Source: Escherichia phage vB_EcoM_SA20RB. Taken from it: 64,000 nt of DNA. Shown in pieces: positions 5,048 through 61,046 of the stretch. The stretch lies in sequence record OL960581; one strand, 5' to 3'. A program made the position numbers and the translations under genes. A model generated the notes under the pieces. That model was given only the letters and a program-made list of their open reading frames with translations. It made no database searches and was not told the DNA's origin. How positions within the stretch are numbered: position 1 is the first letter of the stretch; the number at the start of each line of letters is the position of its first letter.

Positions 5048-5120
5048 CATTCTCGCGCTGGGAATAAAGGACTCGAACCTTTGCATCTAGCAGTCAAAGT
5101 GCTGTGCCTTACCAACTTGG
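5048..5120 (-). tRNA. tRNA-Gln (anticodon UUG)
   Basis: Acceptor UGGGAAU/AUUCCCA, anticodon loop CUUUGAC, T-arm GGUUCGAGUCC; 1-nt spacer to tRNA-Leu. Confidence 0.8.
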
Positions 5121-51622: not shown

Positions 51623-52717
51623 ATGGCAATTGTTAAAGAAATAACTGCTGATTTAATTAAAAAGTCCGGTGAGAAAATTTCAGCCGGACAGAGTACTAAA
51701 TCAGAAGTAGCAACTAAAACATACACTGCCCAGTTTCCAACTGGGCGTGCTAGTGGTAATGACACTACAGGGGACTTCCAGGTAACAGATCTATATAAGA
51801 ATGGATTATTATTTACTGCATACAATATGTCATCTAGGGATTCTGGAAGTCTTAGATCGATGAGATCTAACTACTCTTCTTCATCTTCGAGTATTTTAAG
51901 TACAGCTAGAAACACTATTAGTAGTACAGTATCAAAACTATCAAATGGATTAATATCAAACAATAATTCAGGAACAATAAGTAAAGCTCCTGTGGCAAAT
52001 ATTCTTTTGCCGAGATCTAAATCTGATGTTGATACATCATCACACCGATTTAATGATGTTCAAGAAAGTCTTATCAGCAGAGGCGGAGGTACTGCTACTG
52101 GCGTGTTAAGTAATATTGCTTCAACTGCAGTATTTGGTGCGCTAGAAAGTATAACACAAGGTATAATGGCTGATAATAATGAACAGATTTATACGACAGC
52201 CAGAAGTATGTATGGCGGTGCTGAGAATAGAACTAAAGTGTTTACATGGGATTTGACTCCACGTTCAACAGAAGATTTAATGGCTATTATTAATATCTAT
52301 CAATATTTTAACTATTTTTCTTATGGTGAAACGGGCAAATCTCAATATGCTGCTGAAATAAAGGGGTATTTGGATGATTGGTATCGTTCTACGTTAATTG
52401 AACCTTTATCTCCGGAAGACGCAGCTAAAAATAAAACGCTATTTGAGAAAATGACATCGAGTTTAACTAACGTTCTAGTAGTTTCAAACCCGACAATTTG
52501 GATGGTGAAAAACTTTGGTGCAACATCTAAGTTTGATGGAAAAACGGAAATATTTGGCCCATGCCAAATACAGAGCATCAGATTTGATAAAACACCTAAT
52601 GGTAACTTTAACGGATTAGCTATTGCTCCAAACCTCCCTAGTACATTTACTCTTGAGATTACTATGAGAGAAATTATCACGTTAAACCGTGCTTCTTTAT
52701 ATGCGGGGACTTTTTAA
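51623..52717 (+). CDS. 48: baseplate tail-tube junction protein gp48
   Basis: 364 aa. Confidence 0.85.
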   Translation: MAIVKEITADLIKKSGEKISAGQSTKSEVATKTYTAQFPTGRASGNDTTGDFQVTDLYKNGLLFTAYNMSSRDSGSLRSMRSNYSSSSSSILSTARNTISSTVSKLSNGLISNNNSGTISKAPVANILLPRSKSDVDTSSHRFNDVQESLISRGGGTATGVLSNIASTAVFGALESITQGIMADNNEQIYTTARSMYGGAENRTKVFTWDLTPRSTEDLMAIINIYQYFNYFSYGETGKSQYAAEIKGYLDDWYRSTLIEPLSPEDAAKNKTLFEKMTSSLTNVLVVSNPTIWMVKNFGATSKFDGKTEIFGPCQIQSIRFDKTPNGNFNGLAIAPNLPSTFTLEITMREIITLNRASLYAGTF

Positions 52718-53682
52718 TGTATTCTTTAGAGGAATTTAATAATCAAGCAATAAACGCAGATTTCCAACGTAATAATATGTTTAGCTGCGTTTTTGCGACA
52801 ACTCCATCAACTAAAAGCTCTTCGTTGATAAGTTCAATTAGCAACTTTTCTTATAATAACTTGGGTCTAAATTCAGATTGGTTAGGATTGACTCAAGGCG
52901 ATATTAATCAGGGAATTACCACGCTAATTACTGCTGGCACACAAAAACTGATAAGAAAATCAGGGGTTAGTAAATATCTTATTGGTGCCATGAGTCAACG
53001 CACAGTTCAAAGTTTATTGGGCTCATTTACAGTTGGTACATATTTAATTGACTTCTTTAACATGGCATATAACTCATCTGGATTGATGATATATTCTGTA
53101 AAAATGCCAGAGAATAGATTATCCTATGAAACTGACTGGAACTATAATTCTCCTAATATTCGTATAACTGGGAGAGAATTAGACCCTTTGGTTATTTCAT
53201 TTAGAATGGATTCAGAAGCTTGTAACTATCGTGCAATGCAAGACTGGGTTAACGCTGTTCAAGACCCAGTAACTGGATTGCGTGCTTTGCCACAAGATGT
53301 CGAGGCAGATATTCAGGTTAATCTTCATGCTCGTAATGGATTACCTCATACTGCGGTGATGTTCACTGGATGCATTCCAGTGTCAGTGAGCGCTCCTGAG
53401 TTATCATATGATGGAGATAACCAAATAACTACATTTGATGTTACTTTTGCGTATAGAGTCATGCAGGCTGGGTCGGTTGATAGACAAGCTGCGCTTGAAT
53501 GGCTTGAATCTGCTGCTATAAACGGTATTCAAAGCGTTCTTGGAAATAGTGGAGGTGTTACTGGACTATCTAATTCGCTTTCACGACTTAGTAGATTAGG
53601 AGGAACTGCTGGAAGCATTTCAAACATTAATACTATGACGGGAATTGTCAACTCGCAAAGTAAAATATTAGGAGCAATATAA
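52717..53682 (+). CDS. 54: baseplate tail-tube initiator gp54
   Basis: 321 aa. Confidence 0.85.
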   Translation: MYSLEEFNNQAINADFQRNNMFSCVFATTPSTKSSSLISSISNFSYNNLGLNSDWLGLTQGDINQGITTLITAGTQKLIRKSGVSKYLIGAMSQRTVQSLLGSFTVGTYLIDFFNMAYNSSGLMIYSVKMPENRLSYETDWNYNSPNIRITGRELDPLVISFRMDSEACNYRAMQDWVNAVQDPVTGLRALPQDVEADIQVNLHARNGLPHTAVMFTGCIPVSVSAPELSYDGDNQITTFDVTFAYRVMQAGSVDRQAALEWLESAAINGIQSVLGNSGGVTGLSNSLSRLSRLGGTAGSISNINTMTGIVNSQSKILGAI

Positions 53683-53686
53683 CAAT

Positions 53687-53716
53687 GGGGACCTTTCGGT
53701 CCCCATATTTTTATTT
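53687..53716. terminator. bidirectional terminator after gene 54
   Basis: GGGGACC-UUUC-GGUCCCC followed by AUAUUUUUAUUU. Confidence 0.6.
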
Positions 53717-54001
53717 ACGGAATGAAATAAAAGCAGCAACTGAAGCAACTAAACTGTCTTCAATATAAACTTCAATTTTTACCGGAGCTTCTGACTCAAA
53801 TTTACCTGTTACTACACCTTGGAAAATGCTTTCAGTCTGTTCTGGCTTTGAAAAATTTTCAGAAGGAAAAATTCCGAACTTTTTATCTGTTCCAAAAATT
53901 TTGATAAATTCATCGTAAACCGCTTCATTAAAAGCATTATCAGCAGGAATAACGCCTTCAACTACGAGTTCTTGACCTAAAAAGCGCAAAGAAGATTTCA
54001 T
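53711..54001 (-). CDS. hypothetical protein (96 aa)
   Basis: Six-frame ORF with early promoter upstream. Confidence 0.6.
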   Translation of the reverse strand: MKSSLRFLGQELVVEGVIPADNAFNEAVYDEFIKIFGTDKKFGIFPSENFSKPEQTESIFQGVVTGKFESEAPVKIEVYIEDSLVASVAAFISFRK

Positions 54002-54032
54002 TTTGTGTTCCTCATGTTATATCAGTAAGTCT

Positions 54033-54067
54033 ACTATAACACAACATGAGGGACTTGTAAACTACAT
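54033..54067 (-). promoter_or_regulatory. sigma70-type early promoter (-35 TTTACA 54061..54056, -10 TATAGT 54038..54033)
   Basis: Minus: gtagTTTACAagtccctcatgttgtgtTATAGT, 17-bp spacer. Confidence 0.55.
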
Positions 54068-56119
54068 CTTGAACTTTTTAGACATTCCGTTGATGTTAAC
54101 CAAAGAAGCTAAGATTTGAGAAACTTCGTTTTCCTCTTCTTTTGATTCTTCTACAAGGAATTGGTTAAATCCAGTCATTGGACGAACTTCACCAGTTTCC
54201 ATCAGATGATCGCCATCATATACCGATTCTTCTAATTGTTCAGAAGGAGGAACGATTGTGCCTTCGATTAGATACTTGTTATAAGCAGTTTCTTTCATCA
54301 TGTACGTGCTTACTTTATTAATCTTCAACAAAATTCCACGCGGTAAAATAACTTCAGCTTCTGATGGAAATCCTGATAAATGACCTGGAACGATAACTTT
54401 AATTCGCTCAGCTCCTTTTATTACCATACCTACGCTAGTTTCAGCATCTTCATTAGCATATGCAGAATGACTACCCATATGCATTAAATCTTCAGCATCA
54501 ACGGAACCTTCTCCTTCACCAGAAAATACTGCACCGGAATCATCTAGAGCCATATAGTTTTTACCATGCTCACCGAAGATATTTGGTTTAAGCGATGTTG
54601 ATACGAAGTTCTTGAAATAGAACATTTTATTTTCAATATTATGACGTAAAGTTTTAAAGGTAACTTCTTGTCCACGGTAAAGTGTAGTTCCTGGAGGAAG
54701 AACTGATCCTTTGGCAAAGGCAGAATCCATTGTCTCGATGTGTTTAATAGCTCGTTCCATGTATTCTTCACGGGTAGAATCTGGTTTACCCAAGAGGAAC
54801 GAGTTCATTTCAACATATGAATCTGCACAATAATCTTCAATTACATCAGACTCAGCCTGAGTCAGTCCTTTTGGAGTTACTTCGGTGCTTGCGTATTCAT
54901 ATGCCTGAGCAGCAGATTCATTAATCAATTTATAAATGCTATTCATGACAAATTGAATAATAGCTACTTTTTCGTCTGGCGTGGCTTTAGAACCTTTAAC
55001 TAAATCATTGATAATTTTCTTAATAACATCAAAGCTATTAGAAATATTAATGTCAGCGAGATCGCTTAAAATTTTATCAGTTTTATAATCAAAAAATTCT
55101 TTATTCTTTAAATATTCTTTAGAACCTTGATATGTTATATCGCTCTGCAGCTTGATAGATGGATCACGTAAACGTGCATGGGCCAATGCAATATGATTTC
55201 GGAAGCTTTCTAGTTCATAATCGTTAGATTTAAAACGAGAAGCACTTCTCATACCACCGATAGCTCCTTTGCCGAAGTTTGAACCAATCTGAATAACACC
55301 AGAGTTCATTGGTCCTTCTGCTTTATATACCGGAACTTTAGATTCAAACTCTTGATATTTCTTGGCAGCGAAGCTATCACCCTGAAGTGAAGCATCGACA
55401 GTAGAATATTGAGCTTGTGCTGCTAATCGACGACTAATTTTAGTTTTCTGAATAACAGCTTGATCCGTGCGCTTATCATTTTCTAAAGCAATAGAAGCAG
55501 CAACAGCAACAGCTTTAGGAACAGCATTACCTGTTTTAACATCTACATAAACATCACCAACCTTTGATTCAACTTTTGTGAATAACTCAGTTGAAATAGG
55601 AGGTACACCTGGAATGTCTTCTAAATTGGCATTTTTACGGTAAACCATAATATATGCATACTTTTTATCATAATCCCAAATTTCCTTTAAAAGAACATAT
55701 CGACCTGCTCCTTTAGTACGTACTAAACGGTCAGCAATAACTTGCATTTGACGAGCAGCGCCATTTGTTTTACTTTTTAGTACGCGGAATAGGCATGCGT
55801 CAATTTTATACTGTTTCATTGTTTGAAGAGCAGTATCAAAAACCGCATTAATGACACCAATTGGATTTCCACCCAAGTTTTTAAGTTTAACGAGCGATAG
55901 TTTCTCATTGACACCTATCATTACGATATGCATCATTTTATCGCCTGGCTTAACGTTTTTATTTGTATCACCGCCAGAGGTGTATGTACAAAATCTAAAT
56001 CCAGGAAGCACACTTTCTTCGCCGGCTTGAATAGCAAAAATTTGAGGTATTTTATGCTTAGGATTTAAGTTAACAACCGGCGCCGAAGCGCCGTCAAATA
56101 ATTCTGTAATAAGTTCCAT
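54062..56119 (-). CDS. alt: Alt-like ADP-ribosyltransferase, copy A (685 aa)
   Basis: Closest in length to T4 Alt; C-terminal ...FKNFVSTSL... and ...EAEVILPRG... fit the R-S-ExE ART signature. Confidence 0.8.
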   Translation of the reverse strand: MELITELFDGASAPVVNLNPKHKIPQIFAIQAGEESVLPGFRFCTYTSGGDTNKNVKPGDKMMHIVMIGVNEKLSLVKLKNLGGNPIGVINAVFDTALQTMKQYKIDACLFRVLKSKTNGAARQMQVIADRLVRTKGAGRYVLLKEIWDYDKKYAYIMVYRKNANLEDIPGVPPISTELFTKVESKVGDVYVDVKTGNAVPKAVAVAASIALENDKRTDQAVIQKTKISRRLAAQAQYSTVDASLQGDSFAAKKYQEFESKVPVYKAEGPMNSGVIQIGSNFGKGAIGGMRSASRFKSNDYELESFRNHIALAHARLRDPSIKLQSDITYQGSKEYLKNKEFFDYKTDKILSDLADINISNSFDVIKKIINDLVKGSKATPDEKVAIIQFVMNSIYKLINESAAQAYEYASTEVTPKGLTQAESDVIEDYCADSYVEMNSFLLGKPDSTREEYMERAIKHIETMDSAFAKGSVLPPGTTLYRGQEVTFKTLRHNIENKMFYFKNFVSTSLKPNIFGEHGKNYMALDDSGAVFSGEGEGSVDAEDLMHMGSHSAYANEDAETSVGMVIKGAERIKVIVPGHLSGFPSEAEVILPRGILLKINKVSTYMMKETAYNKYLIEGTIVPPSEQLEESVYDGDHLMETGEVRPMTGFNQFLVEESKEEENEVSQILASLVNINGMSKKFKM

Positions 56120-56122
56120 GAT

Positions 56123-58219
56123 TTATCCTTGAACGAACTTGTAAGGCATGTTTGCAATATCTATGCAAGATGCAATAATTCCAAGAGATGATTCTACTTT
56201 TTGTTTAACATTTGATGAAACAAATGATGCAAAGTCAACTCTGTCTTCTATTTCAATATCACCTGTCATTGCAACTACTTCACCAGTTTCCATTAGACGG
56301 TCACCGTCATAAATTACTGATTCGGTGAGTTCTTCCGTAGTCATAACTTCAGCTTGAATGAGTTTTGTATTATTAGATGTTGTTCCGTCATTATTAGAAG
56401 CATCAGTTATTTTATTAACTTTGACCATCAATCCGCGTGGTAGAATTACTTCAGCTTCTGTTGCTATTCCTAGACTTCCTGGATATACAACATTAACTTT
56501 ATGAGCTCCATCAATTGCCCATCCTATTTGAACTTTAACGTATTCAGGATTTTCTTTATACGCTCTTATTTCGTTTGGATTAATAGTTATTCCTTCTTCA
56601 TTTTTATCAACTGTCAATTCATTACGAGCTTCTGGTTCTAAAAGACCAATACCAGCATGTGTAATTCCAAAACGTCCAAAAATGATAGGAGTTAAAGAAG
56701 TAGATACAAAATTTCTGAAATAGAACACTTTATTTTTAACTAGTGCTTCGTATATAGGAGCAGTCATGCTTTGAGCACGATAAACTGTAATGCCTTCTGG
56801 TATACGATCACCATTTTCAAAAGCTGAATCTAAGTTATTTATAGCAGATTCAATTTCTTTTTCACTCATTACATCATATCGTTCTGGATTGTAACGACCC
56901 AAAAGAAGATTATTGATGTCAGTATATCCTGAACCACAATACTCTCTAATGCCGCGCTTTTGTGATGGAGTATATTTAGAACCATCACGGGCAATAGTAA
57001 TATCAATCATTGGACCTGCACCAATTCCAGAAAAGCTATAAATCATTCTTTTAAGGAATTTAGTTTTTGCTGCGTTCCAGGAATTTTTAGTTATTTCTTC
57101 CCAGACTTCATCTGGCTGCCCTTTACGAGTTTTATTATGTTTATCAAGCCAATTATCTTTATATTCTTCAAAGAATTGATTAACAGCTGCTGCGTATTTC
57201 TCTAAACATTTTATTGAAGTAGTTGGTTCATTTTTAATCGCATTAAGAATTACATCTTTAATTTTTTCAGAAACTTCATTAACCTCACTTTTTGAAAAGA
57301 ATTTATAATCATAGTGAAGTTCATTTGCAGTTCCTTCAGCAATAATTTTTGCTGTCTTTGTTTTAGAAGCTAATGAATTAATTCCAAGCTTCATTTCTTC
57401 TGCTTCGGGAATTAAAGGAGCGGTAGCAGGTTTATTGAAATTAGCTGCGGTAGATTCATACTTCTGGAATAATTCACTTTCAAATCTAGAAGATTCTAAT
57501 GATTGACTTTGCGCAATTGCTCTACGGGAAATTTTAACTTTAACGATTACAGCTTGGTCAGAACGTTTATCATTTTCTTGCGCAATAGATGCAGCAATTG
57601 CCTCATTTTTAGTTACTTGAGCTCCAGTATCTTTATTGATATAAACATCACCAACCTTCGATTCAACTTTAGTAAAGAGCTCGGTACTAATTTCCGGAAC
57701 TCCTGGAATGTCTTCTAGTGATACATTTTTGCGATGTATAAGAATATATGCATACTTTTTATCGTAATCCCAAAGTTCCTTAAGAAGGACGTATCTGCCG
57801 CCTGAGCGACTACGGATAAGTCTATCAGCAATAAGTTGAATTTGACGAGCTTGACCAGCAGTTTTAGACTTAAGAATACGGAGCATGCAGGCATCAATTT
57901 TATACTGACGCATCGTCTGCATCGCAACAGTAAAAACTGAATTGATGTAATTAATTGGGCTTGGACCGAGACCTTTTAATTTAGCAATTGAACCTTTAGC
58001 AGTTAATGTAAAAGGAACAATATGCATCATTTTATCGCCCATTTTTAAATCGCGATTAGTATCACCTCCAGATGTATAGGTACATAAACGAAAGCCTGGT
58101 TGTTCAATTGCGTCATCAACATGAACTGAAAAAATTTGCGGTATTTTCTTCTTTGGATTTAAGTTTGTAATCGGAAGAGTAGTATCTTCGTCAAATAATT
58201 CTGTAATGAGTTCCATCAT
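56123..58219 (-). CDS. Alt-like ADP-ribosyltransferase, copy B (698 aa)
   Basis: Paralog of copy A (conserved N-terminal ~230 aa and C-terminal STS / EAE motifs, divergent middle); late promoter upstream. Confidence 0.75.
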   Translation of the reverse strand: MMELITELFDEDTTLPITNLNPKKKIPQIFSVHVDDAIEQPGFRLCTYTSGGDTNRDLKMGDKMMHIVPFTLTAKGSIAKLKGLGPSPINYINSVFTVAMQTMRQYKIDACMLRILKSKTAGQARQIQLIADRLIRSRSGGRYVLLKELWDYDKKYAYILIHRKNVSLEDIPGVPEISTELFTKVESKVGDVYINKDTGAQVTKNEAIAASIAQENDKRSDQAVIVKVKISRRAIAQSQSLESSRFESELFQKYESTAANFNKPATAPLIPEAEEMKLGINSLASKTKTAKIIAEGTANELHYDYKFFSKSEVNEVSEKIKDVILNAIKNEPTTSIKCLEKYAAAVNQFFEEYKDNWLDKHNKTRKGQPDEVWEEITKNSWNAAKTKFLKRMIYSFSGIGAGPMIDITIARDGSKYTPSQKRGIREYCGSGYTDINNLLLGRYNPERYDVMSEKEIESAINNLDSAFENGDRIPEGITVYRAQSMTAPIYEALVKNKVFYFRNFVSTSLTPIIFGRFGITHAGIGLLEPEARNELTVDKNEEGITINPNEIRAYKENPEYVKVQIGWAIDGAHKVNVVYPGSLGIATEAEVILPRGLMVKVNKITDASNNDGTTSNNTKLIQAEVMTTEELTESVIYDGDRLMETGEVVAMTGDIEIEDRVDFASFVSSNVKQKVESSLGIIASCIDIANMPYKFVQG

Positions 58220-58239
58220 ATCCTCTCTAGTGTTTATTC

Positions 58240-58247
58240 TATTTATA
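58240..58247 (-). promoter_or_regulatory. late promoter TATAAATA for the alt pair
   Basis: Plus tatttata 21 nt upstream of ATG 58219; preceded by a hairpin. Confidence 0.6.
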
Positions 58248-58252
58248 AAATT

Positions 58253-58270
58253 AAAGGCCCGAAGGCCTTT
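58253..58270 (-). terminator. AAAGGCC-UUCG-GGCCUUU hairpin
   Basis: C(UUCG)G hairpin overlapping stop of 58269..58457. Confidence 0.45.
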
Positions 58271-58457
58271 AATAATCTATTGGTAAGAGAGTACGATATA
58301 TTTCAAACTTTGGACCTTTTTCGTAGGCATCAAATGTTTCTGTAAATTTATTATAAGCATATGCATCTATAAATTCAATCATAATTTGTGATACAGAAGT
58401 AGAAACATCTCCACCTTCTTTTTGAGCAACGACAATTGTTTCTAAGTAAGCTTTCAT
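58269..58457 (-). CDS. hypothetical protein (62 aa)
   Basis: ATGA overlap with gene 30 stop. Confidence 0.55.
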   Translation of the reverse strand: MKAYLETIVVAQKEGGDVSTSVSQIMIEFIDAYAYNKFTETFDAYEKGPKFEIYRTLLPIDY

Positions 58458-59917: not shown

Positions 59918-60183
59918 TGTTCATCCTTCAGAGTTTGATTTACAGCTCTATTATAAATCAATTCATCATTAAGCTCAGGCAAAGACTTATGATATGTAGT
60001 TCTAACTTTATTTCCTTGCATCCAGTGCTTGACATAAATGAAACCTTGCTCTACACATTTTTTAAAAATTCGTTCGTCTTTTTGAGCTCGGAATTCTGGA
60101 TTGCATCTAAAAAATTGATTTACGTGACCGTAATCACGTGTAGTATTACCTTCATTTTCATAAATAGTGTGAACGACAAACAT
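59914..60183 (-). CDS. 30.1: hypothetical protein 30.1
   Basis: 89 aa; ATGA overlaps. Confidence 0.6.
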   Translation of the reverse strand: MFVVHTIYENEGNTTRDYGHVNQFFRCNPEFRAQKDERIFKKCVEQGFIYVKHWMQGNKVRTTYHKSLPELNDELIYNRAVNQTLKDEQ

Positions 60184-61046
60184 TAGAATGCTCCTTGGAA
60201 AATATTATCACCACTAGTAAATCTATTAAAATACCCTGCATCGCCAGGCTTGGTATAACTCCACGTATGGAATGGATTCATATGATATGGGTGTGTATAA
60301 TATGGATTATATGGATGTGTATAATATGGATTATACGGATTAAATCCAGGAGTTCTCCAGGTAGTGTTCCAACGAAAAGAATCGTTTTTAACCATCTTCT
60401 CAATTACATCTTTTATAGCTTTTTCACTATCAAAACTTTCTTTATTTTCCTTTGGTGAAAAAAGCTTATTTTCTATATCATTCCATGTATAAACTCGCTG
60501 TGCAGTTTTTGGAATTTTATCACGCTCTCCTCGAGCCATCCAATAAACCGGAACATTTAATATTTCACTCGCATGGTCGCAGTGGTGAGCGAGATCGTCA
60601 ATATAACAAATTACGTTATATTTCTCTTTTGCCTTTTTGAATAACTCTTCTTTTGAAGAATCATGACCACACATCATTACTTCTGAGAAGGCACCAGGAA
60701 AAAGAGCATTCAAATTAAATTGACGATTCAACAGAGCGTCAATAGAATCACCCAATGCTGTAACAGCTACAAAATTATAATCTTCTTTTAATTTGTTAAT
60801 TACACACAGGGCATCTTTATACGGAGACAAATAACGAATAAAATCTGAACGATTGTATTTTTCAATTAACTTGACACCAAGTTCTTCATCACAATTAAAG
60901 AGTTTACCTGGAGAAATAAATTTCTCATCTTGGATCATTTTTAAAATATGTTCTAACGGAAGATTATATTTCTGAGCAAAATAAGGAAGGCCTGATTGCC
61001 AGCTTAAACATACTCCATCAATATCAGTCAAAATAGTTGGCTTCAT
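60183..61046 (-). CDS. 30.2: HAD-superfamily hydrolase-like protein 30.2 with Pro/Tyr-rich repeat
   Basis: 287 aa; motif I ILTDIDGV, motif IV YIDD; C-terminal NPYNPYYTHPYNPYYTHPY. Confidence 0.65.
   Translation of the reverse strand: MKPTILTDIDGVCLSWQSGLPYFAQKYNLPLEHILKMIQDEKFISPGKLFNCDEELGVKLIEKYNRSDFIRYLSPYKDALCVINKLKEDYNFVAVTALGDSIDALLNRQFNLNALFPGAFSEVMMCGHDSSKEELFKKAKEKYNVICYIDDLAHHCDHASEILNVPVYWMARGERDKIPKTAQRVYTWNDIENKLFSPKENKESFDSEKAIKDVIEKMVKNDSFRWNTTWRTPGFNPYNPYYTHPYNPYYTHPYHMNPFHTWSYTKPGDAGYFNRFTSGDNIFQGAF
60293..60340. repeat. 2 x 24-bp tandem repeat inside 30.2
   Basis: gtgtataatatggattata[t/c]ggat twice; encodes the PYNPYYTH repeat on the minus strand. Confidence 0.7.

Follow-up and report, generated by a model that had tools for sequence, protein, structure and literature searches.

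Why would a T4-like phage carry two Alt-like ADP-ribosyltransferase (ART) genes side by side, and do their products act on the same host proteins? The question is raised by a tandem pair of minus-strand genes in Escherichia phage vB_EcoM_SA20RB (sequence record OL960581), of which a stretch of 64,000 nucleotides was analyzed; we refer to this whole stretch as the window, and coordinates are positions in it unless stated otherwise. The textbook set of ADP-ribosyltransferases with which phage T4 takes over its host consists of Alt, ModA, and ModB. The two genes in the window are the Alt/Alt2 pair of Tequatrovirus phages, and most natural T4 relatives, T2 included, carry Alt2 as a fourth ADP-ribosyltransferase that T4 has lost. 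This is not a new discovery, as the gene pair is known and annotated.

The Alt/Alt2 pair, its distribution, and its remnant in T4

The genome is a Tequatrovirus (T4-like) one, and the pair lies in its alt locus, where the genes are ordered as in T4; the synteny common to the two runs from gp54 and alt.-3 to alt, alt.1, and gp30. The genes are as follows.

51623-52717, plus strand: gp48
52717-53682, plus strand: gp54
53711-54001, minus strand: alt.-3, 96 aa, DUF5498, which closes the minus-strand block
54062-56119, minus strand: copy A, which is Alt2, 685 aa
56123-58216 (697 aa, from the second ATG) or to 58219 (698 aa), minus strand: copy B, which is Alt
58269-58457, minus strand: alt.1, 62 aa, PF24647
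58454-59917, minus strand: DNA ligase gp30

The original prediction, made from the sequence alone, described two neighboring minus-strand open reading frames (ORFs) of 685 and 698 residues with 3 nt between them. The coordinates check out, the gap reads TAA-atc-ATG, and all of the quoted motifs (MELITELFD, KIDAC, RYVLLKE.WDYDKKYAYI, FVSTSL, and EAEVILPRG) are found. Because the two products are 41% identical over their full length (BLASTP, E 2e-162), their likeness is not due to chance. A shared N-terminal third and a differing center, as claimed, are seen in the alignment (52-82% identity in columns 1-220 and about 12-20% in the center), and both genes code for Alt-family ADP-ribosyltransferases: PF03496 (ADPrib_exo_Tox) scores 73 bits with copy A and 129.7 bits with copy B against a curated cutoff of 23.4, and PHROG 802, 'Alt-like RNA polymerase ADP-ribosyltransferase', matches both end to end (850 and 907 bits). 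The pair was thus read correctly, but it was already known.

What does not hold is the implied rarity of the pair, which is the majority state in Tequatrovirus. The 4.9-kb region is matched by 543 phage records, of which 376 span it whole (at least 80% covered), and it has 97-98% nucleotide identity to many Tequatrovirus records. Copy A has essentially one allele: 401 records contain its center and ART part at at least 95% identity, and the best match after these is about 51% identical (Dhakavirus). These comparisons used the GenBank phage collection, since a scan of IMG/VR gave only five related loci, a number that does not allow population analysis.

Carrying both genes is normal for the genus, and the pair has already been annotated, named, and noted in the literature. 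Relatives carry both genes under distinct names, a possibility that the original prediction had allowed for, but neither known distinct functions nor a lost catalytic residue was found. In phage Bas37 (BASEL, KarlGJung), the genes are annotated as Alt (bas37_0033) and Alt2 (bas37_0032, QXV82013.1), at positions 763-4920 of L017, and are orthologs of window positions 54062-58219; Alt2 and copy A are one and the same gene, at 98% nucleotide identity. In vB_SsoM_113 the pair is annotated alt_1/alt_2, and alt_2 is the copy A gene, and T2 has both genes, the counterpart of copy A being a 685-aa 'hypothetical protein' noted as alt.-1. These three counterparts, known from database annotations, have the length, position, and 3-nt gap of copy A in a region that is 97.7-98% nucleotide identical, and there is no substantive difference between them and copy A. 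Alt paralogs were already mentioned by Nolan et al. in 2006 (PMC1524935), and a 2026 paper notes two Alt-like proteins with 43% identity (PMC13600099); a literature search for 'Alt2' together with ADP-ribosyltransferase and phage returned no papers.

That T4 has only one full alt gene, as stated in the original prediction, is borne out by the T4 annotation. In T4, the open reading frame alt.-1 matches copy A residues 1-56 with 95% identity and alt.-2 matches residues 62-116 with 98%, but both are only 56-62% identical to T4's own Alt. The GenBank note on them reads 'old duplication of the first part of alt'; judged by sequence, a more fitting description is that they are what is left of a full-length Alt2. 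Two lesions are evident: base-level alignment shows that one base is gone from an A-run, which shifts the frame between alt.-1 and alt.-2, and a deletion has removed 1,699 bp between two copies of a 9-nt direct repeat, CTAAAAAGT. Both copies of the repeat are present in the window.

55772-55780, minus strand: upstream CTAAAAAGT repeat, a deletion end point of the T4 lineage
54073-54081, minus strand: downstream CTAAAAAGT repeat, the other deletion end point

The deletion junction lies at positions 5105-5113 of the T4 locus (L001) and is contiguous in 93 records, non-laboratory isolates among them; the other records match one side only.

Deletion of copy A by the T4 lineage could be taken to mean that copy A is a decaying duplicate heading for loss, as in T4, but this is already contradicted by the data and is scarcely credible. 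About 400 records have the ORF intact with identity of at least 95%, an orthologous A-type copy is kept in Dhakavirus, and the catalytic residues are invariant. The sequence comparisons argue that Alt2 is conserved and under purifying selection. The tandem pair, again with 3 nt between its genes, also occurs in L008, a divergent relative taken from a public sequencing run; compared with its L008 ortholog, copy A shows 75% identity and a dN/dS of 0.13 (0.04 in the N-terminal module and 0.22 in the center), and copy B is 63% identical to its own with a dN/dS of 0.23 (0.65 in the center), all of these ratios being rough as dS is saturated (>1).

Insertion data for Bas37, reported in Extended Data Table 7 of the HIDEN-SEQ preprint (10.1101/2025.11.20.689424), fit a working gene whose disruption costs fitness. 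Alt2 is classed as 'Intermediate', with 116 of its 164 TA sites hit (71%) and a mean count of 44.5 in the K-12 control, and Alt is classed as 'Non-essential', with hits in 164 of 179 TA sites (92%) and a mean count of 203.6. Both small neighbors of the pair are also 'Non-essential', and the main text of the preprint is silent on Alt2 (10.1101/2025.11.20.689424).

Catalytic domain, processing signals, and expression

The two proteins have the same layout, with the segments placed as follows.

55415-56119, minus strand: copy A N-terminal module, aa 1-235
54860-55414, minus strand: copy A helical center, aa 236-420
54236-54859, minus strand: copy A ART domain, aa 421-628
54065-54226, minus strand: copy A C-terminal propeptide, aa 632-685
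56123-58216, minus strand: copy B N-terminal module, aa 1-237; center, aa 238-418; ART domain, aa 419-629; C-terminal propeptide, aa 633-697

Both catalytic sites are intact, with the R / S-T-S / E-x-E set kept in order as R482, S507-T508-S509, and E587-x-E589 in copy A and as R480, S505-T-S507, and E587-x-E589 in copy B. Residues R482, S507, S509, E587, and E589 (copy A numbering) are invariant in a 23-sequence alignment. A structural model of copy A, disordered at residues 1-11 and 629-665, has the ART fold of the R-S-E clade, and its closest folds are Vis, iota-like, and C3 enzymes; a PDB sequence search with copy A gave no match at E values up to 1. The toxins of this clade (Vis, C3, iota Ia, CPILE-a, CDTa, and VIP2) thus have the fold and the three motifs in common with the Alt pair. 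The Alt proteins differ from them in an extra insert of ∼40 aa between S-T-S and E-x-E, which is disordered in the model, and in having N-terminal and central regions specific to phages as well as two propeptides that are removed by protease. The N-terminal module corresponds to PF26846 (Tevenvirinae_ADPRT), an assignment that comes through the records of a 99%-identical homolog (P0001) and of both L008 genes.

From the E-x-E motif and the fold, we infer that both proteins would use an R-S-E-type ART domain (C3/VIP2/iota-like, E-x-E, arginine specific) for mono-ADP-ribosylation of host proteins at arginines. A different substrate for Alt2 is conceivable, such as RNA or DNA, or the attachment of NAD-capped RNA in the manner of ModB, given that the center is unique to the A-type proteins and that ART families readily change substrate class (PMC10468400, PMC11618068). 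However, the E-x-E motif and the closest folds (Vis, iota-like, and C3) are those of protein-modifying R-S-E enzymes, and nothing in this analysis points to nucleic acid binding; we regard a non-protein substrate as very unlikely.

The ends of both proteins carry signals for processing in the phage head. T4 Alt is cut by the gp21 prohead protease after ITE-6 and LTE-619, as determined by mass spectrometry, and the mature protein has a mass of 68.2 kDa, with each head containing about 40 copies (PMC5694885, PMC9026906). Copy B has gp21 motifs ITE-6 and LTE-632 at positions homologous to the T4 Alt sites, and copy A has ITE-6 and LEE-631 at homologous positions, with LEE still obeying the [LI]-x-E rule. 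Past the C-terminal site, 11 columns are invariant across paralogs and genera (Y634, D635, G636, D637, E641, G643, E644, F651, F654, K682, and F683). The two proteins would therefore share an outer frame consisting of the 235-aa Tevenvirinae_ADPRT module, a 6-residue N-terminal propeptide, and a C-terminal propeptide of roughly 55-65 aa. This frame may direct both of them to the prohead core, where gp21 would trim both ends (at ITE-6, and at LTE-632 in copy B or LEE-631 in copy A), leaving mature proteins of about 69-70 kDa (predicted masses, 70.2 and 69.1 kDa) that would be injected along with the DNA. It is plausible, by motif conservation and by analogy with T4 Alt, that copy A undergoes the same packaging and processing as Alt.

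It could be argued instead that Alt2 is made late but not packaged, and acts in the producing cell or as an accessory of the core or scaffold. A literature search turned up no proteomic evidence for Alt2 in virions, and disruption of Alt2 in Bas37 lowers fitness even on K-12, unlike that of the injected and dispensable Alt. Against this, the N-terminal module of Alt2 is strongly constrained (dN/dS 0.04) and both gp21 motifs are kept at the positions used in T4 Alt, and we consider an unpackaged Alt2 to be quite unlikely.

Expression signals suggest that the pair forms a single late unit.

58253-58273, minus strand: hairpin of the intrinsic-terminator type (AAAGGCC-TTCG-GGCCTTT, then a T-run), where alt.1 ends, just upstream of the late promoter
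58240-58247, minus strand: T4-type late promoter TATAAATA of the alt-alt2 unit, directly after the alt.1 hairpin
56126-56129, minus strand: copy A Shine-Dalgarno AGGA, within the last codons of copy B and 6 nt before the ATG at 56119

The original prediction placed a late promoter just upstream of copy B, and this is the single, conserved TATAAATA that would serve both genes. It lies 20 nt upstream of the first ATG of copy B, and its position is the same in T4, L002, Bas37, and the divergent L008; the motif occurs 24 times in the window, compared with 9.8 expected. The hairpin that ends alt.1 has a folding energy of -15.3 kcal/mol (z -3.0). Copy B probably starts at 58216 (697 aa, MELITE...), in agreement with the numbering of T4 Alt, because its Shine-Dalgarno GAGG sits 5 nt from the second ATG and only 2 nt from the first. 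Late in infection, both genes would be read as one message from the promoter at 58240, as suggested by the promoter itself, the 3-nt gap, and the embedded Shine-Dalgarno, with translation of copy A predicted to start from this sequence within the end of copy B. The same arrangement of a Shine-Dalgarno inside the upstream gene is seen in L008, and in T4 for alt/alt.-1.

A second TATAAATA inside copy B (56836-56843, minus strand), 717 nt upstream of the copy A start and kept in close relatives, was considered as an internal late promoter for copy A and rejected; it is probably there by chance, because it is missing from T4 and L008. A scan of 53.5-58.7 kb for sigma-70-type promoters and terminators showed no enrichment over shuffled sequences.

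Divergence of the two copies and exchange of cargo

Similarity between the two copies is distributed very unevenly. The N-terminal modules are 67% identical and the ART domains 34%, with 25-48% in the core flanking the catalytic motifs and 5-12% in the stretch between S-T-S and E-x-E, which is partly disordered in the model. Which substrate a C3-like enzyme chooses is influenced by this part of its domain. The centers of copies A and B are identical only at background level, and a profile-profile comparison (hhalign) of A-type with B-type central regions detected no homology (probability 1.3%). Unrelated centers and a divergent ART domain with a hypervariable insert between S-T-S and E-x-E, set inside a common frame, could thus lead to different host targets. 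Because the central regions are unrelated and the ART loops divergent, Alt and Alt2 most likely act on different sets of host targets, as far as can be judged from their sequences.

A simpler proposal would be that Alt2 is a redundant duplicate that hits the same targets as Alt, for example, Arg265 of RNA polymerase alpha, a modification known for T4 Alt only, and just raises the injected dose. Copies A and B do have their outer frame, E-x-E motif class, and operon in common. However, a dosage duplicate does not account well for centers without detectable homology, for an ART domain at 34% and an insert at 5-12% identity, for A-type and B-type cargo lineages that stay separate in both Tequatrovirus and Dhakavirus, or for the differing insertion tolerance of the two Bas37 genes, and we consider it unlikely.

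The cargo lineages emerge from neighbor-joining trees of 19 Alt proteins from nine genera, built by region. These trees disagree: N-terminal modules cluster by phage genus, with Tequatrovirus A and B together and all three PspYZU05 copies together, whereas the center and ART domain cluster by cargo lineage. The A-type lineage includes copy A, the downstream copies of L008 and JS98, and the third copy of 04086; the B-type lineage includes copy B, T4 Alt, the upstream copies of L008 and JS98, the Karamvirus and Mosigvirus proteins, and the second copy of 04086. Tandem alt arrays at the same locus beside gp54, and with the same architecture as the window pair, are present elsewhere in the Straboviridae, with two copies in Dhakavirus JS98, three in Dhakavirus 04086/WG01, three in Jiangsuvirus PspYZU05, and two in Biquartavirus UP87. 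The downstream copy of JS98 has an A-type center and ART domain (43% and 56% identity) and its upstream copy is B-type. Across these arrays the number of copies varies from one to three, and the N-terminal modules group by genus and not by cargo type. Mosigvirus, Jiaodavirus, and Karamvirus have one alt, and Krischvirus has one full-length copy. Either the duplication predates the split between Tequatrovirus and Dhakavirus, and the N-terminal modules would later have been homogenized or have coevolved with each head, or cargo moves between genomes.

Movement between genera is indicated by one segment of copy B.

56357-57017, minus strand: copy B ART cassette, 89% nucleotide identical to Dhakavirus 'alta' (about positions 4895-5560 of L010)

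This cassette corresponds to nt 1200-1860 of copy B (∼650 nt), and carriers of 'alta' include WG01, JS10, and Bp7. In the same comparison with Dhakavirus, identity falls to 53% over the first 700 nt of alt and to 61-65% over the flanking genes gp48, gp54, and ligase; with the cassette at 89%, the comparison indicates that a catalytic-module cassette has been exchanged between the genera. An assembly chimera was considered as the source of the Tequatrovirus-like ART in Dhakavirus 04086 and rejected, as the same gene is present at 96-99% identity in at least 39 records; the Dhakavirus 'alta' records come from independent isolates, such as WG01, QL01, Bp7, IME08, and JS10.

Cargo also varies within Tequatrovirus. 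Copy B has two major alleles, and the window type is found at at least 95% identity in 313 records; it is about 50% identical to the T4 type across the center and ART domain (56477-57497, minus strand), compared with 96.6% in the flanking genes. Copy B is nonetheless the positional ortholog of T4 Alt (gpAlt, NP_049811), with 70% identity overall and with the late promoter, catalytic motifs, and gp21 sites in common. The N-terminal 220 columns are 95-100% identical and the C-terminal tail 80-95%, and the difference in allele extends over about nt 720-1740, where amino acid identity is 11-33% in the center and about 60-70% in the ART domain. Identity between T4 Alt and copy A is only 42%.

The logic of a conserved delivery module joined to an exchangeable toxin cargo is like that of polymorphic toxins and of MuF-fused phage head effectors (PMC5512222, PMC9503650). 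Unlike the MuF effectors, the Alt pair has no MuF domain and no adjoining immunity gene, and its delivery module is Tevenvirinae_ADPRT. We propose, with confidence evenly divided, that the alt locus is a cassette system, in which a genus-specific packaging frame (the N-terminal module and the protease-removed tail) surrounds effector cargo that recombines within and between genera, and that Alt2 is a second ADP-ribosyltransferase, conserved and injected, which has a host target of its own and possibly an anti-defense role and which has been overlooked because T4 deleted it. The pattern of frame and cargo, with exchange between genera, adds modestly to what is known of the pair.

We consider it reasonably probable that the account as a whole is correct, with Alt and Alt2 made from one late message, sharing a packaging frame, trimmed by gp21, injected, and ADP-ribosylating arginines on differing targets. 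Several points weigh against it, beyond the roughness of the dN/dS values. T4 and 92 other records bearing the deletion junction manage without Alt2, and because they lack the full gene, Alt2 is dispensable on at least some hosts. Toxic truncation products, instead of loss of function, could explain why insertions are less dense in Bas37 Alt2, the structural model is of medium confidence, with no informative structural match for the N-terminal module, and a search of the literature yielded neither virion proteomics nor enzymology nor target data on Alt2. Differences in cargo may nonetheless matter in practice: T4 Alt restores growth against Mokosh type I and the Bas37 Alt allele, which is of the window's type, does not. 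Because Alt alleles differ in this way, cargo variation is a plausible source of host-range and counter-defense differences among therapeutic T4-like phages.

Neighboring features

Two further hairpins flank alt.-3, which is 100% identical to T4 Alt.-3 (DUF5498).

54007-54054, minus strand: RNA hairpin between the copy A stop and alt.-3 (-21.5 kcal/mol, z -4.3)
53685-53706: perfect 9-bp-stem hairpin ATGGGGACC...GGTCCCCAT between the convergent gp54 and alt.-3

The first of these is kept in T4, contains the alt.-3 Shine-Dalgarno GAGG in its 3' arm, and is not followed by a U-run; it may control alt.-3 translation or stabilize the mRNA end. The second resembles a bidirectional terminator, with a terminator-like score for either strand. 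C-terminal extension mutants of T4 Alt.-3 escape the CmdTAC defense system (PMC11618068).

On the other side of the pair, alt.1 matches the Pfam family PF24647, 'Phage blade protein', with 100 bits, and the terminator hairpin ahead of the alt late promoter overlaps its stop codon. A gp30.2-like ORF of 287 aa (60183-61046, minus strand) has a short tandem peptide repeat at its C terminus, NPYNPYYTHPY NPYYTHPY.

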